From positions 8,756 through 72,755 of the forward strand of contig CALXRP010000007.1 of NCBI GenBank assembly GCA_944390885.1: a DNA stretch of 64,000 bases, read 5' to 3'. This DNA comes from an uncultured Alphaproteobacteria bacterium. Its GTDB lineage: Bacteria; Pseudomonadota; Alphaproteobacteria; RF32; CAG-239. A program made the position numbers and the translations under genes. The notes beneath the pieces are model-generated. The model saw only the letters and a program-made list of their open reading frames with translations, had not been told where the DNA came from and searched no databases. Shown here one piece after another: positions 13,151 to 41,445 of this stretch; positions within the stretch are counted from its first letter, which is position 1, and each line of letters starts with the position of its first letter.

Positions 13151-13236
13151 GGGGGTATGGCGGAACTGGTAGACGCGCTAGACTCAAAATCTTGTGGCCT
13201 CAGGCCGTGTCAGTTCGAGTCTGACTACCCCTACCA
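13151..13236 (+). tRNA. tRNA-Leu (anticodon CAA), CCA encoded
   Basis: Acceptor GGGGGTA/TACCCCT, D-arm GGTAGA, anticodon loop CTCAAAA, long variable arm, T-arm GTCAG-TTCGAGT-CTGAC, and 3' ACCA. Confidence 0.9.
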
Positions 13237-15607: not shown

Positions 15608-15882
15608 TTATATCTATTTTTATAAAACATTTTTTATTTGACTTCCGGGGGCATTTCGCATAGCTTAGTTTTGCATTGGTTGATTACCAATGCGGGGTTT
15701 GAAAGCCCCTTTTCAGGTTTTCTGCATGAGCAGATGTAAAAACTACCTTTTTGCCTTATGGCAGGAAGGTAGTAAAATACGTTATATCTAACAAATATAC
15801 TACACTATTTCCTGAAAATAGCTTTCAACTTCCTGCCACCTCTCATCAAGGTGGTTTTTTGTTAATTTGTCAGGAGAATATT

Positions 15883-16563
15883 ATGAAAAAGTTTTTACTA
15901 ATATCTTTTATAATGCTAACTGCTTGCAAATCAATAAGTTATAATGATGTTAATCCAGAAATTAAACCAAATAGTAATTTATTGCCAGCGTTAATCACTG
16001 TTGTAGATATGAATAATTTAGAATCTGTATATTCATCAGGGGGCTATCAAGGTATTGCTAATAATTATGGTACAGGATACGGAGCAAATCCTTGGGCCGG
16101 ATGGGCACAAACAACCGTAGTAAATGGAACGTCTTATAAAGATGCACGAGTCAACGATGTTATAAACATTTTTGAAAAAGAAGTAAAAGAGAATATTTCT
16201 TCACCTTATGGAGAGAAAAAGGGATATGTTGCACTGAAATTAGGGTATCGGGGAAATGATACCTCAATTTTTTATATATTACCCTCTATGCTCTCCTTAT
16301 TTACAATTAACATTTTAGGCTTTCCGGTAAATGAAATAACACAATCCCTAGAAGTACAGGTAGAAATATGGAACAATAAAAAGGAGTTAATTGCTAAATA
16401 TACAGAAAATGTTGTAAATTCCGACTTTATTGCAATGTATTGGGGGTATAATGAAACAAATATATGGAGAAAAGTTGCTGCAGACAATATAAAACAAGCA
16501 TTAGAAAAAATTAGATATAAAATAAATGAAGATGCACTGACAATTAAAAAGAAACTTAAATAA
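15883..16563 (+). CDS. lipoprotein (AT-rich moron)
   Basis: ATG at 15883 after an AGGAGAA RBS. MKKFLLISFIMLTAC has a lipobox (LTAC). The gene is AT-rich relative to its neighbours. Confidence 0.6.
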   Translation: MKKFLLISFIMLTACKSISYNDVNPEIKPNSNLLPALITVVDMNNLESVYSSGGYQGIANNYGTGYGANPWAGWAQTTVVNGTSYKDARVNDVINIFEKEVKENISSPYGEKKGYVALKLGYRGNDTSIFYILPSMLSLFTINILGFPVNEITQSLEVQVEIWNNKKELIAKYTENVVNSDFIAMYWGYNETNIWRKVAADNIKQALEKIRYKINEDALTIKKKLK

Positions 16564-17189: not shown

Positions 17190-17495
17190 ATGCCCAAAAG
17201 AAAAACTTATGCCCGGGAAGACAGTTTTGCCGAACTCGACGAGGTAATCTTTCTGGCGCGCGAAGCCGGACAGCTGACTTCCATGCTCAAGGCCATAGAG
17301 TTAAAAGGCAAGCTTGCCGGCCTCTATGCCGAAAACAAAAAAACGGAAGAAGAACCGGACATTGCCCGGATATTGGTAAAATTTGTAGATAATTTAGAGG
17401 AAAGATATGAGAAAAACAAACGCCAAACCCAAGACCAAATGTGCCGAGATGGCCCGGGTGTTTGCGCCGCTGATGACCGAGAAAAAGCGGATTAA
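17190..17495 (+). CDS. terminase small subunit (putative)
   Basis: ATG at 17190 with a GGAGAAAG RBS, positioned directly before and overlapping TerL. AIELKGKLAGLYAENKK resembles the conserved C-terminal motif of Terminase_2-type small subunits. Confidence 0.6.
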   Translation: MPKRKTYAREDSFAELDEVIFLAREAGQLTSMLKAIELKGKLAGLYAENKKTEEEPDIARILVKFVDNLEERYEKNKRQTQDQMCRDGPGVCAADDREKAD

Positions 17496-18756
17496 GTTTT
17501 ATTACGGCGGACGTGCCGGCGGAAAATCTTATGCTTTTGCCGACAGCCTGCTGTTTTTGGGGCGGCAGAAAAAGCTTTTTATCGCCTGCCTGAGGGAGAT
17601 TCAGGAATCAATCAAAGATTCGGTCCACAAACTTCTGTGCGACCGGATTTCTTTTTATTCTCTGGGCGATTATAAAATTTATGAAACCAAAATAGAAAAC
17701 ACAATCACCGGCACAAAGTTTATCTTCAAAGGCCTGCGCGATCAGGACAGCCAGAAAATAAAATCCCTGGAAGGCGTGGACATTGCCTGGATTGAAGAGG
17801 CGCAAACCATCAGCAAAAAAAGCTGGGAGATTTTGGAGCCGACGATTCGCAAAGACGGTTCCGAAATCTGGATTTCTATGAACCGTGAAGAAGAAAACGA
17901 TCCTTTGTGGATGGCCGTTGCTGCCAATCCCGATGAAAGAACGCTTGTCCGCTGCGTCAATTATTACGATAACCCGTTTTGTCCGGAAGAAATCAAATAT
18001 CAGGCCGAAAAATGCCGGAAAAACTCACCCGATGACTATGCGCATATCTGGCTCGGCGCCCCGATCGTGCAGAGCAATACCAAGCTGATTTCCGGAACCG
18101 ACGTCCGCCGGGCTTTTGAAGCCAAAATGAACGGGAGTACCTCGCCGCTGATTATCGGATTGGATATTGCCAGATTCGGCGATGACGCAACTTCTTTTTG
18201 CTTTCGCAAAGGCCGGTGGTGCTACCGCTTTGAGAGTTATTATAAACAAGACAACGTCGGTGTGGCCAATCTGGCAACCCGTTTTATCAAAGAATGCCGC
18301 CCGTACCGGATTTTTATGGATATCGGTGGGCAGGGCGCCGGCGTATATGACATTTTAAAAGACCGCGGTTTTGGGGAGATTATCCGCGGGATTTATTTTG
18401 GCGAAAAAGCAATTAACGAAGAGCGTTATTTCAACCGGCGCGCCGAAATGTGGGACAGCGTCAATCAGTGGCTCAAATCTCAGCCGCCTGTCCAGCTTCC
18501 CGAAGATGAGGAACTGTTTAACGATTTAACTGCGGTCAATAAGAAATATGACCGGAAAGGAAGGTTGCAAATGGAAGAAAAAGATGAGGTCAAAAAACGT
18601 CTTGGACGCTCTCCGGACAAAGGAGATGCTTTGGCATTAACCTTTGCCGAACCGGTTTATGATTGCGGTGAACCGAAATTATACGGCAACGGTAAGGTCT
18701 CAATAGAAGAAATGTTTGCCCTCGCCGCGGGTGAAAAAGATAATTCCGGCTGGTAA
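17407..18756 (+). CDS. terminase large subunit (PBSX/Terminase_3-like)
   Basis: Walker A YYGGRAGGKSYA, an ATPase-plus-nuclease-sized protein (449 aa), and IWLGAP... typical of PBSX-family TerL. An alternative start lies at 17449. Confidence 0.9.
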   Translation: MRKTNAKPKTKCAEMARVFAPLMTEKKRIKFYYGGRAGGKSYAFADSLLFLGRQKKLFIACLREIQESIKDSVHKLLCDRISFYSLGDYKIYETKIENTITGTKFIFKGLRDQDSQKIKSLEGVDIAWIEEAQTISKKSWEILEPTIRKDGSEIWISMNREEENDPLWMAVAANPDERTLVRCVNYYDNPFCPEEIKYQAEKCRKNSPDDYAHIWLGAPIVQSNTKLISGTDVRRAFEAKMNGSTSPLIIGLDIARFGDDATSFCFRKGRWCYRFESYYKQDNVGVANLATRFIKECRPYRIFMDIGGQGAGVYDILKDRGFGEIIRGIYFGEKAINEERYFNRRAEMWDSVNQWLKSQPPVQLPEDEELFNDLTAVNKKYDRKGRLQMEEKDEVKKRLGRSPDKGDALALTFAEPVYDCGEPKLYGNGKVSIEEMFALAAGEKDNSGW

Positions 18757-18762
18757 AACTCT

Positions 18763-18850
18763 CCGAAAAATAGCTTCAATACTTTTGCTTATCCCGCTGT
18801 GCAATTTCCCGGCGGGATTTTTTTATAACCCCAAACAAGATAAGGAGAAA
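18763..18850 (+). repeat. direct repeat copy 1 (terminator hairpin plus RBS), left flank of cassette 1
   Basis: ccgaaaaatagcttcaatacttttgcttatcccgctgtgcaatttcccggcgggatttttttataaccccaaacaagataaggagaaa is repeated at 21005..21092. Confidence 0.95.
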
Positions 18851-18854
18851 GGAA

Positions 18855-19718
18855 ATGAATGAAGAAAGCAAAGCAACACAAAAATGTATACAGGATCTAA
18901 TGGAAGGCAGAGCCTTATTAAGACGAGGTTATCGACGTCCGGGACAGTCAGAATATTATTATCTGACCAAAAATTTTGATGACAGTTATAATCAGATAGA
19001 TGTTCCTGATGATTTCGGCCGTCAGTGGTTCGGAAAGACACTACCAGATAACTTTCAAAATGATTATAAAATAACAAAAGACATGAATGAACATCCAGAA
19101 AAATATTATATTTGGTATACAATGAGCGACAACAAAGTTAGAAGTTTACATGCTGAACGGCATGGAAAAATTTTTAGATGGGATACACCACCGCAAGGAG
19201 GACATCCGGGAGAAGATTATAATTGCAGATGTTTGGCAATCCCATATAAACCACAGTATGATCAAAAAAAATTTTTAAATGATCTAATAAAGAATATTGA
19301 TGAAACGCAGGGAAAAATTGATTTATTTAACGCAGAAATAGCTACAATGGAAAAATGGATTAAAAATATTAGGGAAGAAAAAATTAAAATTTATAAAAAA
19401 ATTCAAAAAAGTTCTTTAGAAGGATTAAAGAATGGCATAGAAGGAGCAAACGAAAATGGCGGAATTGTAGCGGAAATTGCTGGAAAAATTAAAAATAATC
19501 CATATTTAGATTTTTATAATTTATTAGCCGGAAGAACAAGTGGAATGTTTGCAACAACGTTAGCCGAATATAATAGTCAAAAAAGACAATTACTTCAATT
19601 ATCTCAAGATGAAAAAATTATAGCAGGCCAAATTGAAAAAAGAAAAGACGCCGTATCTGATATGCGAAAGGAAATGCACAAAATGAAACAGTATATGGAA
19701 TTAATTAATGCTTTTTAA
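18855..19718 (+). CDS. Mu F / SPP1 gp7-like minor-head-domain protein with an unrelated coiled-coil C-terminal half
   Basis: WYTMSDNKVRSLHAERHGKIFRWDTPPQGGHPGEDYNCRCLAIPY matches the conserved core of the Phage_Mu_F domain. The remaining ~150 aa are K/E/I-rich. The gene is AT-rich. Confidence 0.7.
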   Translation: MNEESKATQKCIQDLMEGRALLRRGYRRPGQSEYYYLTKNFDDSYNQIDVPDDFGRQWFGKTLPDNFQNDYKITKDMNEHPEKYYIWYTMSDNKVRSLHAERHGKIFRWDTPPQGGHPGEDYNCRCLAIPYKPQYDQKKFLNDLIKNIDETQGKIDLFNAEIATMEKWIKNIREEKIKIYKKIQKSSLEGLKNGIEGANENGGIVAEIAGKIKNNPYLDFYNLLAGRTSGMFATTLAEYNSQKRQLLQLSQDEKIIAGQIEKRKDAVSDMRKEMHKMKQYMELINAF

Positions 19719-20289
19719 GATAACAAACATAAAAACAACATAAAAGCGGAGTTTGTAATGATGTTATAAAAGCAAGAGAAATTCCCTCAGGAATAAATAC
19801 CCTGCTCAGAAAAAACGGAAGATAGAGAACCGTGGCCGCTGACATCCATTGAAAATAACTGTTTTTGTTTTTGAATAAAATATCTTGTATCGATATCGTT
19901 TTTTGAGCGGCAATCAAGGCCGGAATTAAACTTAAGCGACATAGAAAATATAAGCCTAGCAGATAGACGCATAAAACCTGCCAGATTGTGGAAATTGGTA
20001 TTAATTGAATAATAAAAACCAAAATAAAATAACCGGCGGTAATGGCAGAATCTGCCAAAAAATAAGAGAAAAACAACCGAAAAGAGAAAAAGCGTAAACA
20101 AAGATCGTTATGCAAAAGATAAAGATATATACTTAAAGACGTTATACAATAAGCAAAGGCATTAAGCAGGATTTTTATCGATGAGGGCAAGAGAAAAATA
20201 TTTATTAAAAATACCGGTGTAATAAATACAATAAAAATGTCTATTTTTCTCAGAAATAAAACAATAGCGTCTTTTAATACACTTAACAT
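19705..20289 (-). CDS. polytopic membrane protein (cassette 1)
   Basis: 194 aa with multiple long hydrophobic segments. It is convergent with, and overlaps, the 3' end of the MuF-like gene. Confidence 0.55.
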   Translation of the reverse strand: MLSVLKDAIVLFLRKIDIFIVFITPVFLINIFLLPSSIKILLNAFAYCITSLSIYLYLLHNDLCLRFFSFRLFFSYFLADSAITAGYFILVFIIQLIPISTIWQVLCVYLLGLYFLCRLSLIPALIAAQKTISIQDILFKNKNSYFQWMSAATVLYLPFFLSRVFIPEGISLAFITSLQTPLLCCFYVCYLKKH

Positions 20290-20477
20290 GGAAGAACCCG
20301 TCTTTTATATCTTGTACTTAATAATAAAAAACTTTAAATTTAGTGTCAAATAATAAAAGCAACCATCCTTTTATAAAGTTACAATATTTTAATAAATATG
20401 GAAAATATTATAATGGTAAATAAAGGAAAAGAAAGTTCTAAGGAAAGTCATAATATTTATAACAAAAAGCAAAAATA

Positions 20478-20972
20478 ATGTTTCGTGTTTGGCCAAAATT
20501 TTTATATATCTTTGCCAGTATGGTCTGTTTAAGTCTGATCTTTTGCATTGGCGCTGTTGTAATCAACCATAATACGCAAGGAGCACAATGTGACATATAC
20601 CTATGGCAGCAAGATGATATAGTCGGAAAAATAAACTTTCAAAGCTGGTTCAATTGGTATTGGCTCGGAGTGCCTTGCCGCCTAACGGCCGGTGCCGTTT
20701 TCGGAATTTACCTTTTGGCAATACCGTTATATTGGCTGTTGCGGGAGATCGGAACGAAACTCTGGAAAATCTCAAAAACCGGCCGTTTTATGGTCGTTGA
20801 ATATCTGCTTTGGCTGATTGCTTATTATGCCATTTTGATGATGAAAACAATCAGTAATCAAATTTCTGTTACTTGGAACATATTATATAATGCCGGAATG
20901 GGAAGTCTGGTACTAAGCCTGCCTTTGCTGGCCTTTATAATAATGATTATTTTGGCAGAAAATGAGCATTAA
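20478..20972 (+). CDS. polytopic membrane protein (cassette 1)
   Basis: 164 aa with several hydrophobic segments. AT-rich. Confidence 0.55.
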   Translation: MFRVWPKFLYIFASMVCLSLIFCIGAVVINHNTQGAQCDIYLWQQDDIVGKINFQSWFNWYWLGVPCRLTAGAVFGIYLLAIPLYWLLREIGTKLWKISKTGRFMVVEYLLWLIAYYAILMMKTISNQISVTWNILYNAGMGSLVLSLPLLAFIIMIILAENEH

Positions 20973-21004
20973 ACAGCTTATTGTCCGTCGTTTATGTAAA
21001 GCTC

Positions 21005-21092
21005 CCGAAAAATAGCTTCAATACTTTTGCTTATCCCGCTGTGCAATTTCCCGGCGGGATTTTTTTATAACCCCAAACAAGATAAGGAGAAA
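21005..21092 (+). repeat. direct repeat copy 2, right flank of cassette 1
   Basis: Essentially identical to 18763..18850 and ends at the RBS of the GroES-like gene. Confidence 0.95.
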
Positions 21093-21096
21093 CTTC

Positions 21097-21357
21097 ATGA
21101 TTGCACATGCCGTCATGGACCGGGTTTTTATCCGCCTGAAACCGGTCGAAAAACAAACAACCGGCGGAATAATCCTGACCGACGATTTTGAGCACCGGCG
21201 GACGATTGGAACGGTCGAAAGCGTCGGGCCGCAGGTTTCCGGCGTCAAACCGGGAGACAAAGTTTTGTTTCATGTTTTTGATGAATTGCCGACATATGAT
21301 TCTGATGTCGTTGTCGTTCGGGAAAACAGCATTTTAGGAGTAATAACAGATGAATAA
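21097..21357 (+). CDS. GroES-like co-chaperonin (Cpn10 family)
   Basis: An 86-aa protein. DRVFIRLKPVEKQTTGGIILTD...GTVESVGPQ...VKPGDKVLF...ENSILGVI aligns motif-by-motif with GroES (DRVIVK..E.K.AGGI.L..., VGDIV.F, ...ILA.V). Confidence 0.7.
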   Translation: MIAHAVMDRVFIRLKPVEKQTTGGIILTDDFEHRRTIGTVESVGPQVSGVKPGDKVLFHVFDELPTYDSDVVVVRENSILGVITDE

Positions 21358-23330: not shown

Positions 23331-23473
23331 AAAACAGAGCCGGGATATCGTCATATCCCGGCTTTTCTAAATTGCTCTGGATGGACACGCGCTTCTCCAT
23401 CATATATCTACACTAACAAACCAGTGGACACCACTGCGTGATTTTCTGGCCCTCAGAACAATCTGAGAACAAT
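23331..23473 (+). repeat. degenerate direct repeat copy 1, left flank of cassette 2
   Basis: Contains the perfect hairpin AGCCGGGATAT-CGTC-ATATCCCGGCT, then TTTTCTAAATTGCTCTGGA and CTCAGAACAATCT(G/A)AGAACAAT. All three blocks recur in 24234..24407. Confidence 0.85.
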
Positions 23474-23576
23474 GTAGCATTTGTCTTAAGAAAGTCAAGC
23501 ACGAAAGATTAAATTATTGCTTGTAAAATTATTGTGTTTAATTATTATAATTACTATTATTATCAAAGGAGAGAGC

Positions 23577-24233
23577 ATGAAAAAATATGTTGTCTTAATA
23601 GGACTTGTTGGAATATTATGCTGCAATTCTGCCAAAGCAGATTTTTGGAATGATTTTTTGCGCATTCAGTGCCTGCCGGAACTAAAAAGCCTGTATATGA
23701 CGGTAGAACATCCACGTACCAGTGAAGAACTGCAGGAAAAATTACTGACACAATCTGCGGATTATATTCAAAAATACGGATTATATAATTTACAGGCGCT
23801 TTATAAGCTTGATAATAATGACAAAATATTGTGGCAAAAGAGCTATAATGCTTCCTGCAAAATTGATAATAGGATATTTGAGATACAGATAAACGCGCTT
23901 AATCCGAAAAAAAATTATAAAATAGGAGATAAATATCAATTTCTTTCCGGTGAAGGGAGCGCTGGTATTTATCAGCAATTTTACCTGACTGTTAAAATGA
24001 ATAACAAAGTCATTATTGATGCGCTGGAAGCGGTAAGCCCCAATAATGGCAGAATGATAACTTCCGTACAATTTGATTTAACTCATCCGTCAAATCCGTT
24101 GCTTGATATCCATTATAATTGGGACGGTGATGATATGAGAGCTGATTGGAAAGTGTATAATAGAACTTTCTTTTTGGATAAAAAAGAGTTTACGCCGGTC
24201 ACTTCTGAAAATTTGTGGATAGAGACGGAATAA
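23577..24233 (+). CDS. secreted protein of unknown function (AT-rich moron)
   Basis: ATG at 23577 after an AAAGGAGAGAG RBS, with signal peptide MKKYVVLIGLVGILCCNSAKA. The upstream extension to 23517 is unlikely. Confidence 0.55.
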   Translation: MKKYVVLIGLVGILCCNSAKADFWNDFLRIQCLPELKSLYMTVEHPRTSEELQEKLLTQSADYIQKYGLYNLQALYKLDNNDKILWQKSYNASCKIDNRIFEIQINALNPKKNYKIGDKYQFLSGEGSAGIYQQFYLTVKMNNKVIIDALEAVSPNNGRMITSVQFDLTHPSNPLLDIHYNWDGDDMRADWKVYNRTFFLDKKEFTPVTSENLWIETE

Positions 24234-24407
24234 AAAACAGAGCCGGGATATCGTCATATCCCGGCTCTGGAAAAGCAAGAATATCGTCATATTCAGGCTT
24301 TTCTAAATTGCTCTGGACGGTCGCGGGCCTCCATCATCCTCTAATATAAAATTACTCTTATATGTGACCAACCACTTTCTGGTCTCTCAGAACAATCTAA
24401 GAACAAT
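24234..24407 (+). repeat. degenerate direct repeat copy 2, right flank of cassette 2
   Basis: Has the same three sequence blocks as 23331..23473, with a ~32-nt internal insertion. Confidence 0.85.
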
Positions 24408-28411: not shown

Positions 28412-29236
28412 ATGCCAACCAATAAACTTCTTGAAGACAAGTTGAATAACTGGGCCAAAAACTGGCGCAGACAACAAGAAGAAATGTCATATTCGCCCCA
28501 ATATCAGGCCCAAAACCAAACCCCGTACAACACATCTGCTCCAAACTGGCAACAGACGCCATATCAGCCGCAGGCACAGTCGTTTGCGGCTCAGCCTGCT
28601 GTACCGCAACAGCCTCAACAAGTGTCGGCACAGACTTCGGTCTTAAGTCCTGAAATTGCCAACGCCGCTTTTCAAAAAGGCTTTACGTCTAAACAAAAAT
28701 CCGGCTTTCCCCGAATAAATACGGTTACTCAGGCCATGCCTAATATGAGAAATACTGCGTTTTATCCAGTATATGGCGGTGCTCAGACGGTATATAACAT
28801 AGGAGAAACTTTGTATAAAACAGGAGAAGAAATAGGAGAAAAAATAGGAGAAGGAGTGGTAGATTATCGCACCTATGATCCTTATACAGATGTTCCTAAT
28901 GTTATTTCACCTAATCAGACCTATATACAAAATGTTACGAATTTGGCTAAAGAGGCTAAAAGAGTAGGGGTAATGAACCTTGGTGATGATAAAAAACATC
29001 AATATGTTTCATGTTTTGGTGCGTCTAATGGTATGCCAATTACAATAGGAACGGCTGGAGTTTTAAAAGAAGGTATTGATACATATAAAAAAATTTCAAA
29101 TCCAAGGCTAAAAAATCAATATGGAGGAACATTTGGTGTGTTAGCAGACAGCTTGAAAGATCTAACTAATGATGCTTATGGTCTTTATTTAGGATATACG
29201 GGAAATGATTGTGGTCGTATTCTTAAAAAAAGATAA
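28412..29236 (+). CDS. chimeric protein: Q/P-rich backbone-like N-terminus plus AT-rich C-terminal domain of unknown function (candidate effector)
   Basis: 274 aa. Nucleotide composition drops near 28740, from about 45-50% to about 33-37% G+C by spot counts of 60-nt lines. The C-terminal ~165 aa contain DKKHQYVSCFGASNG...DSLKDLTNDAYGLYLG. Confidence 0.6.
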   Translation: MPTNKLLEDKLNNWAKNWRRQQEEMSYSPQYQAQNQTPYNTSAPNWQQTPYQPQAQSFAAQPAVPQQPQQVSAQTSVLSPEIANAAFQKGFTSKQKSGFPRINTVTQAMPNMRNTAFYPVYGGAQTVYNIGETLYKTGEEIGEKIGEGVVDYRTYDPYTDVPNVISPNQTYIQNVTNLAKEAKRVGVMNLGDDKKHQYVSCFGASNGMPITIGTAGVLKEGIDTYKKISNPRLKNQYGGTFGVLADSLKDLTNDAYGLYLGYTGNDCGRILKKR

Positions 29237-29261
29237 AATTTAAGTTGAAAAAATAGAAAAT

Positions 29262-29297
29262 ATAAGCTATCCTTTCAAAATATGAAAGGATAGCTTA
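29262..29297 (+). promoter_or_regulatory. perfect 16-bp hairpin covering the RBS of the first small membrane gene
   Basis: ATAAGCTATCCTTTCA-aaat-TGAAAGGATAGCTTAT. The right arm contains AAGGA 12 nt before the ATG at 29301, and no T-run follows. Confidence 0.6.
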
Positions 29298-29300
29298 TAA

Positions 29301-29579
29301 ATGAAAGAACGGATACAAAATTTCATCAGAGTATTTGCAGCCTTTATGGTTGTAGATATTTTTCTATTTTTTATGCTTCGGTGGGTAATAGAATATGAGT
29401 GGGCTGTAATAGTTTGGGGAGCACCTTTTTTATCCATTCCCATAGCTTTAGTGTTAGCAATTTTCGCATTCTTCAAAATAACATTCAAAATTCCTTATGC
29501 TCAAATTGTGCGTTGGGGGATAGTTGTTGATACTATAATATTTGGGATCGAAATGTTGAACAATATGATGTTTAAATGA
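29301..29579 (+). CDS. small membrane protein A1
   Basis: 92 aa, MKERIQNFIRVFAAF..., with about 3 hydrophobic segments. It is a paralogue of A2 (30291..30581). Confidence 0.55.
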   Translation: MKERIQNFIRVFAAFMVVDIFLFFMLRWVIEYEWAVIVWGAPFLSIPIALVLAIFAFFKITFKIPYAQIVRWGIVVDTIIFGIEMLNNMMFK

Positions 29580-29609
29580 TATTCAGGCAAAATAGAAAGA
29601 GAAAAGATA

Positions 29610-29867
29610 ATGAAAGAACGTTTTTGGAATTTAATGTTTTTGTGTGGTATGTTTCCCTCGTTATTTTTTTTGTTATTCATTGGTCTTTTTGGGGGAATAG
29701 GAACGATAATGTTTTTGGCCGTCATTTTAGGCTGGATATGGGCAATAAGCATTTTCTTAGTGCTGGTGGGGGTTCCTCTTCCGTATGTCAAACAAGAGTA
29801 TACAGAGTTAGCACTTTTCCTCTTGTTTCCTGAAATATTTATTTTAGGTGCCCTTGTACCTTTTTAG
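29610..29867 (+). CDS. small membrane protein B1
   Basis: 85 aa and almost entirely hydrophobic. Positional equivalent of B2. Confidence 0.5.
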   Translation: MKERFWNLMFLCGMFPSLFFLLFIGLFGGIGTIMFLAVILGWIWAISIFLVLVGVPLPYVKQEYTELALFLLFPEIFILGALVPF

Positions 29868-29930
29868 TAGACAAATATAAAAAAATCTAATATTGTCAAA
29901 GTATCTGAAAAATAAAGGATATTTGATAAT

Positions 29931-30119
29931 ATGAGGAAAACAAAAAAAGAACAAAAGAAAGAGGGAGAAGTTGCCGTGCAAACAACAGCTTTCTCCCGCT
30001 TTTATAATTTCATTAATAATATCGATTATAAAAAACATTGGAAAATATTAGGTTTTTTAGTTATTTTCACCATAATTTTAAGTCTTAGCTTTTTTATAAT
30101 GTTATGGTGTGCATTATAG
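29931..30119 (+). CDS. small membrane protein C1 (basic N-terminus plus one TM)
   Basis: 62 aa, MRKTKKEQKK.... The start region, including 41 nt aaggatatttgataatatgaggaaaacaaaaaaagaacaaaa, is identical to that of C2. Confidence 0.5.
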   Translation: MRKTKKEQKKEGEVAVQTTAFSRFYNFINNIDYKKHWKILGFLVIFTIILSLSFFIMLWCAL

Positions 30120-30128
30120 GGGTAAAAA

Positions 30129-30251
30129 ATGAAAAAATTTAATGTATGGTTCAAATTTTGTTTGTTATGTTTAGGATATTTAATTATCATACCACCATTC
30201 TTGCTGGCATTATATTTAAATATTATAATGATTTGGTCTGAAATTAGTTAA
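30129..30251 (+). CDS. mini membrane protein D1 (40 aa)
   Basis: A manually found ORF, MKKFNVWFKFCLLCLGYLIIIPPFLLALYLNIIMIWSEIS. It is below the ORF-track cutoff and has a positional counterpart, D2. Confidence 0.3.
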   Translation: MKKFNVWFKFCLLCLGYLIIIPPFLLALYLNIIMIWSEIS

Positions 30252-30290
30252 TACTAATATTTAACAAAATAAAATATATAAAAGATAAAA

Positions 30291-30581
30291 ATGAAAGAAC
30301 GGATACAAAATTTTATCAGGGTTTACGCTGCATGGGTTGCAATTGCGCCCTTGTCTATAGTTGGTGAAATATTAGGTTTTTCAGGGAATTATGCTCCATA
30401 TGTTTTTATAGCATTACAGATTATTTTATTCATCTTAGCATTTCTGGCCTTCTTTAATATCACATTAGGTATTCCTTACCGCAAGATAATACAATATGCT
30501 CTGTATATAGATTGGATTTTGTTTTTTATTGCCTTGGTTATTGGATTGCCAATAATCGCATCGCTTATGAGAGGGATATAA
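30291..30581 (+). CDS. small membrane protein A2
   Basis: 96 aa, MKERIQNFIRVYAAW.... The first ~13 residues are nearly identical to A1 and the rest has diverged. Confidence 0.55.
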   Translation: MKERIQNFIRVYAAWVAIAPLSIVGEILGFSGNYAPYVFIALQIILFILAFLAFFNITLGIPYRKIIQYALYIDWILFFIALVIGLPIIASLMRGI

Positions 30582-30582
30582 A

Positions 30583-30858
30583 ATGATAAAACAATTTTTT
30601 CATCAGTTGGCAATGTTGTTAACAATGACCGTTCCTGTCTTTTTTATGGGAATAATTGGTGTTCAAAAAGAAAATTTATTTTTGGATTGGCTTTGTATAG
30701 CTTTATTATTTTTTCTGTCAGGGTGTTTTTTATGCATTTTGTTCGGGAAAAAATTGTCGCTCTTAAAACAAGAAAATGTAGAAATTGCATTATTTCTGAC
30801 ATACATTGAACTTTTAATATTAGTATTTCTTTTTGCTGATACAGTTAAGGATATTTGA
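30583..30858 (+). CDS. small membrane protein B2
   Basis: 91 aa and hydrophobic, abutting the A2 stop. Confidence 0.5.
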   Translation: MIKQFFHQLAMLLTMTVPVFFMGIIGVQKENLFLDWLCIALLFFLSGCFLCILFGKKLSLLKQENVEIALFLTYIELLILVFLFADTVKDI

Positions 30859-30862
30859 TAAT

Positions 30863-31078
30863 ATGAGGAAAACAAAAAAAGAACAAAAACAACTTGAAGA
30901 ATCTAGTATTAAAGATACAGATTCTTCAAGTTTAGTTATTAAATTTTTTGATAAAATAAAAGCAATAAATTATTTTCGTCATTGGAAATACATTATTAGA
31001 ATATTGCTATTAAGCATTCTTCTATTTGGTTATATTTATTGTATAACTTTTTGCACCGTTATAAAGTCAGAATTATAA
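30863..31078 (+). CDS. small membrane protein C2
   Basis: ATG at 30863, MRKTKKEQKQ..., with a C-terminal TM. Paralogue of C1. Confidence 0.5.
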   Translation: MRKTKKEQKQLEESSIKDTDSSSLVIKFFDKIKAINYFRHWKYIIRILLLSILLFGYIYCITFCTVIKSEL

Positions 31079-31094
31079 TAAAAGGGAATGATCT

Positions 31095-31214
31095 TTGAAT
31101 AAGTTTTTAGTTTATTTAAATTTTACATTAATAATCATTGGATATATATTTTCATTAAGTCTATTTTTTTATATGTTATATTGGACAATTATTTTTACTG
31201 TAAGTCTTTTTTGA
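31095..31214 (+). CDS. mini membrane protein D2 (39 aa, TTG start)
   Basis: A manually found ORF, (M)NKFLVYLNFTLIIIGYIFSLSLFFYMLYWTIIFTVSLF. The conserved KF and GY positions match D1. The start codon is weak. Confidence 0.25.
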   Translation: MNKFLVYLNFTLIIIGYIFSLSLFFYMLYWTIIFTVSLF

Positions 31215-31374
31215 AAGTAGCAGTTAAATTTTTATAAAAAACAAATTATCAGTAAAATTTAACTAAAGAAAATAGCTTACGCCGTAATATCGGCGTTTTT
31301 TTGTATACCGAACATCTGCTCAAGCCTGAACAGGTGTTCTTTTTTTATTAAATAACAATCAATAAGGAGAAAAC

Positions 31375-34086: not shown

Positions 34087-34179
34087 TTCCTCTTTTTTTA
34101 TGCCGACAATCCGGCGCCATAATTTTATTACAAATCATAAAAGGAGAAAATAAATGAGTAAAAGCATCGGAAAACTGCT
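34087..34179 (+). repeat. direct repeat copy 1 (terminator tail, RBS, first 26 nt of CDS), left flank of cassette 4
   Basis: A 93-bp segment, ttcctctttttttatgccg(a/g)caatccggcgccataattttattacaaatcataaaaggagaaaataaatgagtaaaagcatcggaaaactgct, that recurs at 36117..36209 with 1 mismatch. Confidence 0.95.
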
Positions 34180-34903
34180 TGGTGGTAAATATGAGCCAAT
34201 GCCGATTGAGAACAATTTTAACAAAAATCGGCAGGTAAATTATTTTGAACTATTCGGGAAAAATGAACAATCTTACATTGAACCGACACCGGCCTGGGGA
34301 CAGTCATTATATCAAGAACAAAATATATCATACATACCACAAGAGAGAAGAAACACTGAATATTTTCCTTCTCGTTTTGAAAAATTTGTTAGAAATTTAA
34401 AGAGCCCAGAAGTTGAAGGGATAGGATATGAAGATAACTTAGCGAAAATAGATCAAAGGACGCATACTGGAATTATACAGCCGACGTTAAATCGTTTTTT
34501 AAGGGCTCATCCGCACTATAGAGAGACATTTCCTAACGATATAAAAGATTTAACTCAACATCATATTGATATCATTTATAAAAACGATTACTACGATGCA
34601 TATCGAATAAATGAAATTCAAAATGAAAAGTTGGCGGAAACAATGTTTGATAGCTATGTCAATCATAGTCCGAAGGATATTACAAAATGGCTTCAAGAAG
34701 GGATTAATCTTTATAGTCATAATACTGTAAGTGAAGACGGTATTTTGGGGAGTCAAACAATAAATAGTTTAAATTATATTGATGAAAATACAGTTGCTTT
34801 GATTAATAATTATGTTCTAGAAAAAAGAATTGAAGAGGCCAAACAAAAAAGACCAAACTATAGAGGCCTAATTCCAAGAATCAACAGATTAAGAATGGAA
34901 TAA
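34154..34903 (+). CDS. GH108-like muramidase with PG_binding_3-like C-terminal domain (divergent); N-terminal 11 aa shared with the gene at 36184
   Basis: VEGIGYEDN...THTGIIQPTL...IKDLTQHHIDIIYKNDYYDAYRINEI...MFDSYVNHSP...SEDGILGSQTINSLN follows the GH108 (hEGGy..., GIt..tl, Y...yw) plus DGiiGpkT pattern. MSKSIGKLLGG comes from the duplication. Confidence 0.6.
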   Translation: MSKSIGKLLGGKYEPMPIENNFNKNRQVNYFELFGKNEQSYIEPTPAWGQSLYQEQNISYIPQERRNTEYFPSRFEKFVRNLKSPEVEGIGYEDNLAKIDQRTHTGIIQPTLNRFLRAHPHYRETFPNDIKDLTQHHIDIIYKNDYYDAYRINEIQNEKLAETMFDSYVNHSPKDITKWLQEGINLYSHNTVSEDGILGSQTINSLNYIDENTVALINNYVLEKRIEEAKQKRPNYRGLIPRINRLRME

Positions 34904-34950
34904 AGCTTATCAAAAAGTTAATACAAGATGCGTTTGAAGTAATTTTTTAT

Positions 34951-35412
34951 CTAGAACGCATCTTGGTTTTTTTGTAAATCAAGCAAGGCACCTAATATTT
35001 TTTCTTGAAATTTGAACCAATCACCGCGATTAAATATTTGTTGCATTGTGCCACAAGACGGAATGCAATATTTGTTGTCATTTCTTAAATCCCAATAAAA
35101 ATCAAGAATCTGCTGACGAATTGCATTATATCTTGCCGTCATGGCTGCTTGCGTTTCCTGAGTAAATTCGGAATCAAGAAGCTGGTATATCTGTTGATCC
35201 ATACACTCATTTGCCTTTATTCCAGCCGAAATATTGCCAGTCGTAGATGTCGGATTGTTTTCAAAAGCTTTTTCCCAACATTGAAAACTAATCTGAGCGG
35301 CTTGCTTTTCACCGTAACTTAAAATTTTGTCCTCTTCTTGCATGTTACAACAATTAAGAAGAAGTAACACCGCTAAAATACGCAAGATATTTTTGTTCAT
35401 TTTTATCCTCAA
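34951..35412 (-). CDS. secreted or lipid-anchored Cys-containing protein
   Basis: 153 aa (or start at 35400, MNKNILRILAVLLLLNCC). It has a signal sequence and several Cys. The organisation is loosely LprI/DUF1311-like, a weak match. Confidence 0.5.
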   Translation of the reverse strand: MRIKMNKNILRILAVLLLLNCCNMQEEDKILSYGEKQAAQISFQCWEKAFENNPTSTTGNISAGIKANECMDQQIYQLLDSEFTQETQAAMTARYNAIRQQILDFYWDLRNDNKYCIPSCGTMQQIFNRGDWFKFQEKILGALLDLQKNQDAF

Positions 35413-35537
35413 ATTAACTTGCTAAAATCTACTATTCTAATATAATAACAGCAAAAGTTTAATTAAATGCAAATGTCATAATAGTTTGGATATTAAATTT
35501 TTATAAGGAAATAATATGAGTGCAATAGGGGATAATC

Positions 35538-35792
35538 ATGCCATCAATTATTCACTGGATAATCTGGGTATTACTGTTAGTACATATATTTCAGAACATT
35601 TTAAAACGGTATAAATTAAAAAATCCGGAAGTCTGGGCAAACATTTTTTCATTACTGACCTGCGGTATAATCTTCGGCTGCCTAAGCCCGACTTTTTCTT
35701 TTGGTTTTTTGTACGGGGTGGTTGGTGCGGTTGTTCCGAGTATGTTCCGTTTTACGGCCAACAAAAAGAGTGATAAAAATGCAGATAATTAA
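35538..35792 (+). CDS. small membrane protein (holin-sized)
   Basis: 84 aa with 2-3 hydrophobic segments and a basic C-terminal tail. Confidence 0.5.
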   Translation: MPSIIHWIIWVLLLVHIFQNILKRYKLKNPEVWANIFSLLTCGIIFGCLSPTFSFGFLYGVVGAVVPSMFRFTANKKSDKNADN

Positions 35793-36075
35793 AGAAATAG
35801 CAAGTTTTTGGAGCTTTGGGCTGCTGATTAGTTTTTTATTTGAAGCAACGTTGCTGATATTTATGCTGCAGCGGATTTTTCAATATTTTATTTCAGATTC
35901 GGCCAGGCTGTACAAAACGCTGACCATTTTAACGACGCCGTTTTTAATCGTCTATATATACGATCCCCGTTTTTTGCTTATTCCGTATAGTATAGAAACG
36001 GCATTTCTGTTTGTCATCCCGCTGACAATAATCTTAAAACCGCTTGCCGTTTTCTGTGATAAAGAAGTAAAATAA
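35779..36075 (+). CDS. small membrane protein (holin-sized)
   Basis: ATG at 35779 overlaps the previous stop. 98 aa with about 3 hydrophobic segments. Confidence 0.5.
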   Translation: MQIIKEIASFWSFGLLISFLFEATLLIFMLQRIFQYFISDSARLYKTLTILTTPFLIVYIYDPRFLLIPYSIETAFLFVIPLTIILKPLAVFCDKEVK

Positions 36076-36116
36076 CAGAACATAGGTTCGATTTCATAGA
36101 GGAAAGATGTTTATCT

Positions 36117-36209
36117 TTCCTCTTTTTTTATGCCGGCAATCCGGCGCCATAATTTTATTACAAATCATAAAAGGAGAAAATAAATGAGTAAAAGCATCGG
36201 AAAACTGCT
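36117..36209 (+). repeat. direct repeat copy 2, right flank of cassette 4
   Basis: See 34087..34179. It is preceded by the perfect terminator hairpin GAGGAAAGAT-GTTT-ATCTTTCCTC plus a T-run. Confidence 0.95.
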
Positions 36210-37056
36210 CGGGGGCGGCGGCGCCAGCACGTCGATGTACGCTTCCGAACGGGAATACTTGAATTATCTCAATAATAAAGACACGTCTTTGGTTGACAAT
36301 ACACTCAACAATTTGAACCAAAGCGCCTACAATTTATCGCAGACGCTGAGCAGCCGGCCGGATTATGTTTATTCGGTAGATGCTTCGGATGCGGCCCGGC
36401 AGCGGGCAGAAAATGCAACATATAATTCATATGTCAGCAGGTTGACGCCGCAATTTGAGCAACAGCAACGCCAACTGGAAACCCGTCTGCAAAACCAGGG
36501 CTTAAGTGTAGGCAGCGAAGCTTATCAAAATGCCATGAACTCAATGTATCAGCAACAAAATGATGCTCTGAACCAGGCTGCTTATAACAGCGTTTTACAA
36601 GGACAACAGGCTTTTAGCAACAGCCTGTCGGATTCCATTCGGGCCGGAAATTTCTCAAATGCCGCCCGGCAGTATCCGGTAAACGAAATCTTGCAGTTAA
36701 TATCCAATTCAATGAGCGGCGATGATGTGGCCCTGGCAAAATATCAAGCTCAGTTGGGAGCAGATTCCCGCATTGCTCAGAACAAAGCCGCAAATTCGGC
36801 CGGTCAATATGCCCTGGGTAATCAGTTTCTGAGCGGAGCGGCCATGGCAATGTTCTCTGATGCCAGAGTGAAGGAAAACATCGTTCCGGTCGGCAGATTG
36901 GATAACGGCCTGACCGTATATTTGTTCAACTATATCGGCGAAGAGATTCCGCAAATCGGGCTGATTGCGCAAGAAGTCGCGGAATACCGCCCGGAGGCCG
37001 TCATGCAGGACGAATACGGCTTGCTGCATGTCAATTATGCTCTGGCCGCAGCTTAA
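36184..37056 (+). CDS. fibre/needle-like virion protein with C-terminal intramolecular chaperone (peptidase S74) domain
   Basis: The body is Q/N/S-rich. The C-terminus, SDARVKENIVPVGRLDNGLTVYLFNY...IGLIAQEVAEYRPEAV, is the hallmark S74 auto-cleaving chaperone motif (SDxRxKxNI). Confidence 0.75.
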   Translation: MSKSIGKLLGGGGASTSMYASEREYLNYLNNKDTSLVDNTLNNLNQSAYNLSQTLSSRPDYVYSVDASDAARQRAENATYNSYVSRLTPQFEQQQRQLETRLQNQGLSVGSEAYQNAMNSMYQQQNDALNQAAYNSVLQGQQAFSNSLSDSIRAGNFSNAARQYPVNEILQLISNSMSGDDVALAKYQAQLGADSRIAQNKAANSAGQYALGNQFLSGAAMAMFSDARVKENIVPVGRLDNGLTVYLFNYIGEEIPQIGLIAQEVAEYRPEAVMQDEYGLLHVNYALAAA

Positions 37057-40720: not shown

Positions 40721-40966
40721 ATGGATTGGGGGTTAGTAGCCGGATTGGCAGCGCTATGCGGTGTTGTGGTCAATTTCATCCGCATCGGACGCTGGCAGGG
40801 AAGCATTGAAACCAGAGTCGATAAAGTGGAAAAAAATTTTGATAAACAGGATATCCGTTTGGAAAATTTAACCACGTCAATTAACGAGCAGAATAAAATT
40901 CTGACCAAAATTGAAGTCAAACTGGATCTGATTTTTCGTGAAAATAAAATAAAGGGCAAAAAATGA
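40721..40966 (+). CDS. holin-like membrane protein (putative)
   Basis: 81 aa with one N-terminal TM (WGLVAGLAALCGVVVNFI) plus a coiled coil. It is the first of four overlapping small genes ending with spanins. Confidence 0.4.
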   Translation: MDWGLVAGLAALCGVVVNFIRIGRWQGSIETRVDKVEKNFDKQDIRLENLTTSINEQNKILTKIEVKLDLIFRENKIKGKK

Positions 40967-41100
40967 AAAAAACAAAAAATATTCGGCGGCTGATGCTTTT
41001 GGCCGCCGTCTTAACCCTTGCAGCGGTGTCGTTATTATATCCGCAGCATGCGGAAAGCGTAGCCCGGGCATTTTCTTTGTTATTAGGAGCGGGAATATGA
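40963..41100 (+). CDS. mini membrane protein (45 aa)
   Basis: A manually found ORF, MKKTKNIRRLMLLAAVLTLAAVSLLYPQ..., with ATGA overlaps at both ends. Confidence 0.35.
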   Translation: MKKTKNIRRLMLLAAVLTLAAVSLLYPQHAESVARAFSLLLGAGI

Positions 41101-41303
41101 AAGGGCGGTTGTTCGGAATATCCGGCATAGCGGCATTATGCCTTTTGAGTTATTTTCTCGGCCGCAGTCATTGCCGTGTTCAAATCGTAACAAAAGAAAT
41201 AGAGGTGGTGAAATATGTATCGGCACAATATCGTAAAATCTCATCGGAACCTAATCTGGAGCGTAGTGCTCTGCTTGAGCTCATGCGCCGCGGACAACTC
41301 TGA
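41097..41303 (+). CDS. i-spanin (Rz-like, putative)
   Basis: 68 aa with an N-terminal TM and a charged periplasmic part. It contains the start of an out-of-frame lipoprotein gene. Confidence 0.5.
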   Translation: MKGRLFGISGIAALCLLSYFLGRSHCRVQIVTKEIEVVKYVSAQYRKISSEPNLERSALLELMRRGQL

Positions 41304-41445
41304 TATCTGTCCGACATTTCCTCTGGCCGGCAGTCGTGTGGCAGAAGAGTTGGAACAGGCGGAATATAAAGATTTTAAAAATACCTGGGAATGGATCGGA
41401 CGATTGGAAAAGCTCAAAAGGCAGCTTGATCTGTGTCATGATTAA
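41215..41445 (+). CDS. o-spanin (Rz1-like lipoprotein, putative)
   Basis: 76 aa with a lipobox LSSC (VVLCLSSCAADN). It begins inside the i-spanin gene in another frame, the classic overlapped spanin architecture. Confidence 0.55.
   Translation: MYRHNIVKSHRNLIWSVVLCLSSCAADNSDICPTFPLAGSRVAEELEQAEYKDFKNTWEWIGRLEKLKRQLDLCHD

Follow-up and report, generated by a model that had tools for sequence, protein, structure and literature searches.

A candidate polymorphic effector/immunity array between the TerL and GroES-like genes of a gut alphaproteobacterial prophage

In this study we analysed a small tailed prophage element on contig CALXRP010000007.1 of an uncultured Alphaproteobacteria bacterium, and in particular a repeat-bracketed block of three genes, ORF A, ORF B and ORF C, which lies between the TerL gene and the gene for a GroES-like co-chaperonin. 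All positions refer to the window, that is, the whole 64,000-nt stretch of DNA that was analysed. With modest confidence we favour the view that this block represents one unit, together with the leftover of a second unit, of a recombination-driven polymorphic effector/immunity array. The parts of this reading differ in strength. It is very probable that the locus is built as an array of effector-partner cassettes which can be exchanged, and we hold with moderate confidence that the pairs are antagonistic effectors and their immunity proteins. Delivery of the effectors through the capsid is suggested tentatively, as something that we somewhat doubt. Each cassette is composed of an 88-nt terminator/ribosome-binding site (RBS) repeat, a gene that opens with a constant 66-residue module (N66), a variable C-terminal payload, and a gene for an envelope-located partner. 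Cassettes are gained, swapped and lost by homologous recombination between their arms. An earlier note on this DNA had proposed a polymorphic MuF-toxin/immunity cassette. The idea of a toxin/immunity-like polymorphic system in a prophage head module is retained here, but the constant module that recombines is N66, not MuF.

Cassettes in the TerL-GroES slot

The block is bracketed by two copies of an 88-bp repeat on the + strand, at 18763..18850 and 21005..21092. Previously described as virtually identical, the two copies were found to be 100% identical, and their similarity extends into both start codons (95% over 99 nt). Each copy contains a hairpin, AUCCCGCUG...CGGCGGGAU, with a 9-bp G+C-rich stem, a 10-nt loop and seven T residues after the stem (U7 in the transcript), followed by the RBS AAGGAGAAA. 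A consensus terminator scan gave no match at this hairpin because the loop is 10 nt long. The whole 88-nt repeat has no extra stability in comparison with shuffled sequence (z = -0.52), and the meaningful structure is the local hairpin only. The repeat hairpin was not found in IMG/VR. Copy 1 begins 6 nt past the stop codon of TerL (17407..18756, + strand; Pfam Terminase_3, 2.5e-34; phrog_3717; 97-99% identical in sister elements) and gives ORF A its RBS. Copy 2 gives the GroES-like gene (21097..21357, + strand; Pfam Cpn10, 1.7e-12; phrog_3188) its RBS, and a portal gene, recognized by family match, lies beyond.

The interior of the block (18851-21004, 2154 bp) has a G+C content (GC) of 32.5%, compared with 47.8% for TerL and 47.2% for GroES plus portal. 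In most IMG/VR relatives in which both genes are covered (portal 48-60% identical), the gap between TerL and GroES is about 0-75 bp. Therefore the ancestral order is TerL-GroES-portal and the block an insertion into this junction, as the earlier note had supposed. ORF prediction placed ORF A (18855-19718, + strand, 287 aa), ORF B (19705..20289, - strand, 194 aa) and ORF C (20478..20972, + strand, 164 aa) at the coordinates and on the strands given there.

The idea of a single insertion, on the other hand, had to be abandoned. Sister elements with 92-99% identical TerL have N66 effector genes in the same TerL-GroES slot, and tblastn maps revealed one to at least three cassettes per slot in varied combinations. 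In the sister loci L004 to L010 a copy of the repeat stands ahead of every N66 gene and of GroES, so the slot holds an array of cassettes, each behind a repeat copy. The simplest arrangement, in L004 and L006, is one cassette in which an N66 gene with an SLT-like payload (N66-SLT) is followed by a C homologue. L012 has the same N66-SLT and C cassette followed by an N66-GH108 gene with the partner gene imm228 on the - strand. L009 has an N66 gene with a VgrG3-like C-terminal payload (N66-VgrG3C) and imm163 on the - strand, and then a cassette of A, B (- strand) and C. L005 carries a remnant of A with B (- strand), a GH108 fragment with imm228 (- strand), N66-SLT with C, and an orphan imm163 (- strand). 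In two metagenome-assembled genomes (MAGs) the slot is split over two contigs each. The first (L013 and L014) reads TerL, N66-GH108 with imm228, a gap, imm163, then A, B and C, and GroES; the other (L015 and L016) reads TerL, N66-VgrG3C with imm163, a gap, N66-SLT with C, and GroES.

At the DNA level the window is homologous to other alleles across the repeat and N66 as far as 19051 (codon 66 of ORF A), where the homology ends. The left recombination arm is therefore made up of the repeat plus N66 (about 290 nt), and the right arm of the next repeat; in the window the left arm includes repeat copy 1, and repeat copy 2 is the right arm.

ORF B and ORF C were expected to be multi-pass membrane proteins, and the predictions agree: ORF B has about five or six hydrophobic helices and ORF C has four transmembrane (TM) helices with a positive-inside pattern, the N-terminus inside and a 39-aa periplasmic loop containing two Cys residues. 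Neither protein has a family match in any library (Pfam, PHROGs, NCBIfam and PADLOC scans), and the other partners have none in NCBIfam. ORF B is convergent with ORF A, with a 14-nt overlap. Upstream of it lies a 40-nt conserved element (20319..20358, - strand) that recurs in the L005 and L012 arrays and contains a sigma-70-like promoter (TTGACA, 17 nt, TATTAT), matching 11 of 12 positions at 20349..20321 (- strand).

B stands beside an ORF A homologue in five contexts: the window, L009, L046, L014 and L045. B in L009 is identical to that of the window, and the pair has diverged in L046 (effector 75%, partner 72% identical), L014 (65% and 58%) and L045 (43% and 33%). In L045 the effector has another N-terminus without N66, and the convergent 3' overlap is kept. 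B behaves as an adjacent, covarying small ORF, but it is convergent and has 194 aa rather than fewer than 150 aa. We conclude that B is the cognate partner, and a putative immunity protein, of the ORF A C-terminus.

The earlier assumption that both membrane proteins serve one toxin does not hold up well, since C is the partner of an SLT-type effector elsewhere. In L004-L008, L012 and L016 the SLT-like effector has a translationally coupled C homologue (at least seven SLT-C contexts), with identities to C of 91-92% in L004-L008 and 68-71% in L012 and L016. In L004 the stop codon of the SLT-like gene overlaps the start of the C homologue. Homology between the window and L004 resumes at 20452, 26 nt upstream of the C start, and these 26 nt (20452..20477, + strand; codons ...NIYNKKQK*) are identical to the end of the L004 SLT-like gene. 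In L046 it is another N66 cassette, and not C, that comes after the A and B pair. Because of the SLT coupling elsewhere, the retained 3' end of an SLT-type gene and the absence of C after the L046 pair, C is probably the leftover of an SLT and C cassette and an orphan immunity gene in the window.

The other effectors have partners of different types: the VgrG3-like effector pairs with imm163, a 163-aa signal-peptide protein, and the GH108 effector with imm228, a 228-aa anchored protein. L005 shows a fusion of the repeat with the 14 codons that remain there of ORF A (MNQMKQHMELINAF), beside an intact orphan B; this is the pattern of effector loss with partner retention known from polymorphic toxin loci; L005 also has the orphan imm163.

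Several observations concern the same slot. In L046 (1919-3019), further N66 cassettes come after the A and B pair: an N66 protein of 139 aa, whose 75-residue tail is novel, then a 141-aa membrane protein, and then the start of yet another N66 gene. In the more distant human faecal phage scaffold MT835830.1 (L001:3098-4837), the slot is occupied by an unrelated 579-aa protein with a long Gly-rich region and no Pfam or PHROG match; the slot is therefore a hotspot beyond the N66 family. A Logan unitig of 2214 nt (L003) starts with repeat positions 59-88 and ends with positions 1-30. It was considered as evidence of a circular cassette and rejected, the simplest reading being an assembly-graph effect of the repeat; a separate repeat-bounded unitig would also be expected if the population were polymorphic at the TerL-GroES slot.

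ORF A and the N66 module

ORF A is composed of N66 (18855..19052), a MuF/SPP1 gp7 core at residues about 66-130 (19050..19244) and a C-terminal half, the putative payload, at residues 131-287 (19245..19718), all on the + strand. A homology search with ORF A retrieved proteins whose first approximately 66 residues are 56-91% identical and whose remainders are unrelated, namely SLT-like (PF01464), GH108 (PF05838) and VgrG3-like C-terminal muramidase (PF21277) domains. N66 is 88-91% identical to the N-termini of the sister SLT-like and VgrG3-like proteins, or 80% over the first 75-79 residues or so, and about 60-65% identical to those of GH108-fused proteins from other metagenomes.

N66 has no Pfam or PHROG match. 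Its profile found 94 proteins among 1.84 billion cluster representatives, with the domain N-terminal in nearly all; a few matches in several stretches are probably spurious. A scan of metagenome contigs added only two short contigs. Pfam payloads were counted in the 67 of the 94 proteins that were scanned. Phage_Mu_F was found in 12 of them, GH108 and SAA in eight each, VgrG3-like_C (PF21277) and Tlde1 (PF10908) in five each, Phage_lysozyme and YkuD in two each, and SLT and Pesticin in one each. Except for MuF, the SAA-like domain and a PG_binding_3 module (two members), all recognized payloads act on peptidoglycan. In the close clade the MuF core falls on the variable side of the codon-66 breakpoint. 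Distant members have N66, then the MuF core, and then a lysozyme-like, GH108 or coiled-coil/Gly-rich tail; this suggests an older module of two parts, N66 and the MuF core, associated with the head. In related IMG/VR phages, N66 genes lie directly after TerL (L032) and in the tail module (L035), each with an adjoining gene for a secreted or membrane partner. We propose that N66 may be a trafficking or virion-targeting domain. Our literature searches, which cannot be exhaustive, found no description of this module.

Some distant N66 genes lie among housekeeping genes, with no phage genes within a few kb (L017:4960-6970, L018:7432-9938 and L019:2399-5508). Their tails are SAA-like, Gly-rich or Tlde1-like. 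The genes behind them encode either anchored Cys-rich proteins, as paralogues in tandem, or small membrane proteins. L018 and L019 share a conserved gene of about 155 aa upstream of the N66 gene, which could encode an adaptor.

It had been claimed that ORF A retains only the conserved core of the MuF domain, and profile searches bear this out. PF04233 matched residues 78-128 at profile positions 60-111 of 112 (51.3 bits, cut-off 29.6), and TIGR01641 matched residues 66-130 at positions 43-107 of 109 (51.7 bits, cut-off 39.65). Both profiles are thus matched in their C-terminal part only, not at full length. D92, K94, R96, H99, H117, C124 and C126 are the invariant residues of the core in the alignment.

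The C-terminal half was predicted in the note to be unrelated and coiled-coil-like. An AlphaFold2 model from a 13-sequence alignment (mean predicted local distance difference test score, pLDDT, 69.6) shows a small alpha/beta N66 module, a beta-rich MuF core and a long antiparallel coiled-coil hairpin, whose helices (137-200 and 231-283) reach a pLDDT of 96 and whose Gly-rich tip (197-229) is of low confidence. Foldseek with this model found only generic coiled-coil hairpins in PDB (all E > 0.01), and phmmer found no match to ORF A among PDB sequences. In PHROGs, neither the C-terminal half alone nor N66 alone gave a match; the long full-length PHROG alignments of ORF A (phrog_324 and others) are therefore not independent evidence of a canonical MuF-like tail. 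The sole PADLOC match, a coiled-coil-type LmuB, is regarded as compositional. Homologous tails were found in the proteins P0002, P0004 and P0079. The hairpin payload probably has its site of action at the inner membrane or the envelope, given that its partner B is integral to the membrane and that the payloads of the sisters all act outside the cytoplasm.

Further insertion slots and the host element

The same insertion signature occurs at two or more additional sites of the element. One is marked by a direct repeat of 99 nt (34087-34185 and 36117-36215, 97% identical), which takes in a T-run, an RBS and the first 10 codons (MSKSIGKLLGG) of an ejection-protein-like gene at 36184-37056. The AT-rich cassette that it delimits (34087-36215, 33% GC) encodes a GH108 protein of 249 aa (34154-34903) and, antisense, a secreted or lipoprotein-like protein of 153 aa with weak similarity to imm228 (34951-35412), as well as two small membrane proteins. 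In the region 23331-24331, a 33-nt hairpin element (23331-23363) is repeated exactly at 24234-24266 and has a degenerate third copy. The exact pair brackets an AT-rich gene for a 238-aa protein without a family match (23517-24233), and the slot past the portal gene contains different genes in L004 and L009.

In addition, a 274-aa protein with a Q-rich linker (p274) is encoded at 28412-29236. Its L004 homologue has a Pfam match to SAA, the domain type fused to N66 in eight of the 67 family members scanned; the similarity of the p274 C-terminus to the N66-linked SAA-like domain is weak (pairwise E = 0.002) and only a hint. Past p274, in the region 28412-31374, lies a 2.1-kb island of 27.7% GC. 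Small membrane proteins are encoded there as two triplets, paralogous and in tandem, that resemble an immunity array. An AT-rich gene without a family match (216-270 aa, 37% GC) is present at 15751-16563, between the DUF6456 gene and small genes upstream of TerL. Sister elements have an antisense GNAT acetyltransferase at this position, so it is another variable slot.

The element is flanked on the left by a tRNA-Leu(CAA) gene (13151-13236). It continues with an S24 repressor and the DUF6456 gene, TerL, GroES and portal, a major capsid gene (phrog_9953), and tail and fibre genes, and it ends at about 41.4 kb with small holin-/spanin-like ORFs, beyond which are host glycogen-metabolism genes. 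The terminal cluster (40721-41445) is composed of four small overlapping ORFs (81, 45, 68 and 76 aa) with N-terminal TM segments, the last with a lipobox-like LSSC, and resembles a holin plus spanin set. No integrase or replication genes were found in the element, nor was an attL/attR repeat between the tRNA-Leu flank and the right end. In related IMG/VR phages, genes for AAA_24, a C5-methylase and GapR stand upstream of the repressor. In three lineages the element has LactB and epimerase genes as neighbours, and host genes (82-85% identical) and element genes (84-92%) have diverged to a similar degree. The element may be defective or domesticated; domestication is only a possibility because integration targeted to the tRNA-Leu could be an ordinary explanation of the shared site. 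The same contig is present in an ENA gut metagenome, and among genome records the nearest ones are gut MAGs, from humans and deer, of uncultured Alphaproteobacteria.

Delivery, related systems and significance

The closest known kind of system is the MuF polymorphic toxins (Jamet et al. 2017, PMC5576092; Apk2 and Bxa, PMC11699363). Like them, the block lies in the packaging/head module of a prophage and contains a MuF element, variable C-termini and adjoining partner or immunity genes. Extra (poly-)immunity genes are suspected, and capsid delivery is hypothesised, in both cases. ORF A stands between TerL and GroES/portal, with the S24 repressor upstream and the tRNA-Leu flank. MuF toxins of temperate phages described so far act in the cytoplasm and are mostly from Firmicutes, and the word 'peptidoglycan' is absent from the text of Jamet 2017. 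In contrast, the sister payloads here target peptidoglycan, the partners belong to the envelope, the stretch between TerL and GroES holds tandem arrays of cassettes bounded by repeats, and the hosts are gut Alphaproteobacteria, not Firmicutes or Bacteroidales. Another difference is in the constant N-terminal module, which here is N66, a module absent from Pfam and PHROGs, with a breakpoint at codon 66 and a partial MuF core downstream of it. Distant relatives that have lysozyme or GH108 tails behind N66 and a MuF core approach the arrangement of the MuF toxins.

Other systems share single features with the array. Peptidoglycan effector/immunity pairs of type VI secretion systems (T6SS), such as VgrG3-TsiV3 and Tlde1-Tldi1, resemble it in the payload families (PF21277, PF10908 and lysozyme-like) and in having periplasmic or membrane proteins as immunity-like partners; these payloads are in sister cassettes only, ORF A itself having none, and the genes here lie inside phage structural modules. 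VgrG, PAAR, Hcp or other T6SS context was not seen in the 64-kb window or in the loci read, as distinct from the genomes as a whole, which were not surveyed. To our knowledge, N66 also differs from known T6SS trafficking domains. As with the arrays of contact-dependent growth inhibition (CDI; cdiA-CT/cdiI) and Rhs, there is replacement by homologous recombination via a conserved sequence upstream of a variable toxin part, and tandem cassettes with a common homology arm accumulate together with orphan immunity genes kept after toxin loss and with toxin 3' remnants. Unlike in CDI and Rhs, each cassette here keeps a complete and separately translated gene, which has an RBS and an N-terminal module of its own, instead of a C-terminal fragment lacking a promoter, and the arms include the intergenic terminator/RBS repeat. 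T4 gp5 lysozyme with Spackle and Imm likewise combines a cell-wall enzyme with a phage-encoded periplasmic or membrane inhibitor, virion-borne location being putative here; T4 has one fixed pair and no polymorphic arrays. Phage morons, too, are AT-rich, lie inserted between conserved late genes and bring a promoter-like site and a terminator with them, but the insertions here are exchangeable units with a common protein-coding homology arm.

In the cassette of the window, ORF A carries the MuF core and the coiled-coil hairpin as its payload, and its cognate partner B has its own promoter-like site; the SLT-like effector gene of C was lost, leaving 26 nt behind. The array may work as follows. 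N66, aided in this allele by the MuF core, would target the effector into the capsid, from which it would be ejected into the envelope of an attacked cell. The sister payloads would degrade or miswire peptidoglycan there. B, C and other partners expressed from the lysogen would neutralise incoming cognate effectors, and orphan partners would widen its protection. Three points suggest delivery through the capsid: fusion to MuF recurs, the genes are placed repeatedly within the structural modules of a single phage group, and MuF has been hypothesised to be a capsid-targeting domain of prophage toxins (PMC5576092, PMC11699363, PMC5512222); how prophage MuF-type toxins reach their targets is still unknown (PMC11699363). 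The element has no recognisable integrase or replication genes, yet it has at least three repeat-bracketed cassettes and further immunity-like arrays. A more speculative and, in our view, unlikely idea is that N66 is a capsid-loading signal, that the particles of this compact element are a vehicle which carries exchangeable effectors against peptidoglycan and membrane in its head and injects them into the periplasm of rival gut Alphaproteobacteria, and that the cognate and orphan immunity genes in the arrays of the lysogen define kin.

Several points weigh against the effector/immunity array delivered by the capsid. The whole case rests on comparative sequence analysis. A search of JGI metagenomes for an empty TerL-repeat-GroES site gave no match, and no excised cassette circle was found. 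For the 157-residue C-terminal half of ORF A, no homologue beyond generic coiled coils, and no known toxin fold, was recognized in Pfam, PHROGs, PDB sequences or Foldseek. A, B and C are kept together in three loci, at about 60% identity, and C could therefore have a role for ORF A as well. The non-phage loci L017-L019 fit cellular export at least as well as capsid loading, and killing of a cell may take more than a few enzyme molecules per virion.

The main competing explanation shares its physical steps with the array reading and differs in purpose. N66 proteins would be virion penetration proteins, and their partners would be superinfection-exclusion inhibitors of the prophage, in a phage-versus-phage arms race following the logic of T4 gp5 and Spackle-Imm. 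We consider this unlikely, although it accounts well for the predominance of peptidoglycan hydrolases among the payloads, the envelope exposure of all partners and the location of the genes in structural modules; T4 Spackle, an inhibitor of the virion lysozyme gp5, is a precedent (PMC7677548, PMC7650644), and orphan partners would broaden the range of exclusion. It fits less well with the absence of an N66 gene from most related phages (within the 7-22 kb or so that was read), which indicates that N66 is not needed for entry, with Tlde1/YkuD-type and pesticin-like payloads, which are toxins rather than hole-punching enzymes, with the presence of several full effectors in one array, and with the N66 loci that have no nearby phage genes. 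Those last loci, in which N66 genes among housekeeping genes are followed by partner genes, would rather suit the idea that the effectors are prophage morons exported by a cellular secretion system, T6SS-like or other, for which N66 would be the recognition domain, the phage site giving mobility only. VgrG3-like_C and Tlde1 are typical T6SS effector domains, and the cassettes resemble morons, being AT-rich and having a promoter-like site and a terminator of their own. This second explanation seems rather improbable to us, because N66 is repeatedly fused to the virion-associated MuF core, N66 genes occur at three positions within the structural modules of one phage group, and there is no secretion-system gene in the window.

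Two explanations that keep the block within ordinary phage functions have still lower probability. The earlier note had left room for ORF A as a functional MuF/gp7-type minor head protein, with B and C as unrelated morons. A MuF core above both the Pfam and the TIGRFAM cut-off, the location in the packaging/head module and the failure of family searches to detect another MuF-like gene in the element, as that note had also stated, speak for it. Comparison of related elements for the presence or absence of the block, a check named beforehand, showed it to be variable, and relatives do not always carry a syntenic full-length gene. ORF A is absent from L004 and L006, whose TerL is 97% identical and which carry the SLT-like N66 gene only and no MuF gene, and from most IMG/VR relatives, in which TerL stands beside GroES without a MuF match. 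ORF A is therefore not an essential head protein. The partial profile match, the linkage of A and B kept across deep divergence and the survival of B after deletion of ORF A also make a minor head protein very improbable. The second of these explanations, that the cassettes are alternative lysis modules of an endolysin and a holin-like membrane protein, was rejected and is given next to no probability. SLT, GH108 and lysozyme-like enzymes are indeed encoded beside small membrane proteins in the sister loci, but the shared charged N66 module, the tandem multiplicity and the orphan partners do not fit such modules, soluble proteins with a signal peptide are among the partners, no enzyme domain is present in ORF A, and a separate small holin-/spanin-like gene cluster exists at 40.7-41.4 kb.

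In conclusion, the block between TerL and GroES is best read, with the reservations given above, as part of an array of effector and immunity-like cassettes. The locus represents a set of natural domain swaps, in which N66 is joined to easily assayed cell-wall enzymes or to the MuF core, each with a candidate envelope antidote. It makes two ideas directly testable, namely loading of proteins into a phage head by a short N-terminal module and action of such proteins in the periplasm of the recipient. It also defines the N66 module, which lies outside Pfam and PHROGs, four candidate immunity families without annotation, and a simple recombination scheme by which effector arrays are built in a phage late operon of a poorly studied group of gut bacteria.

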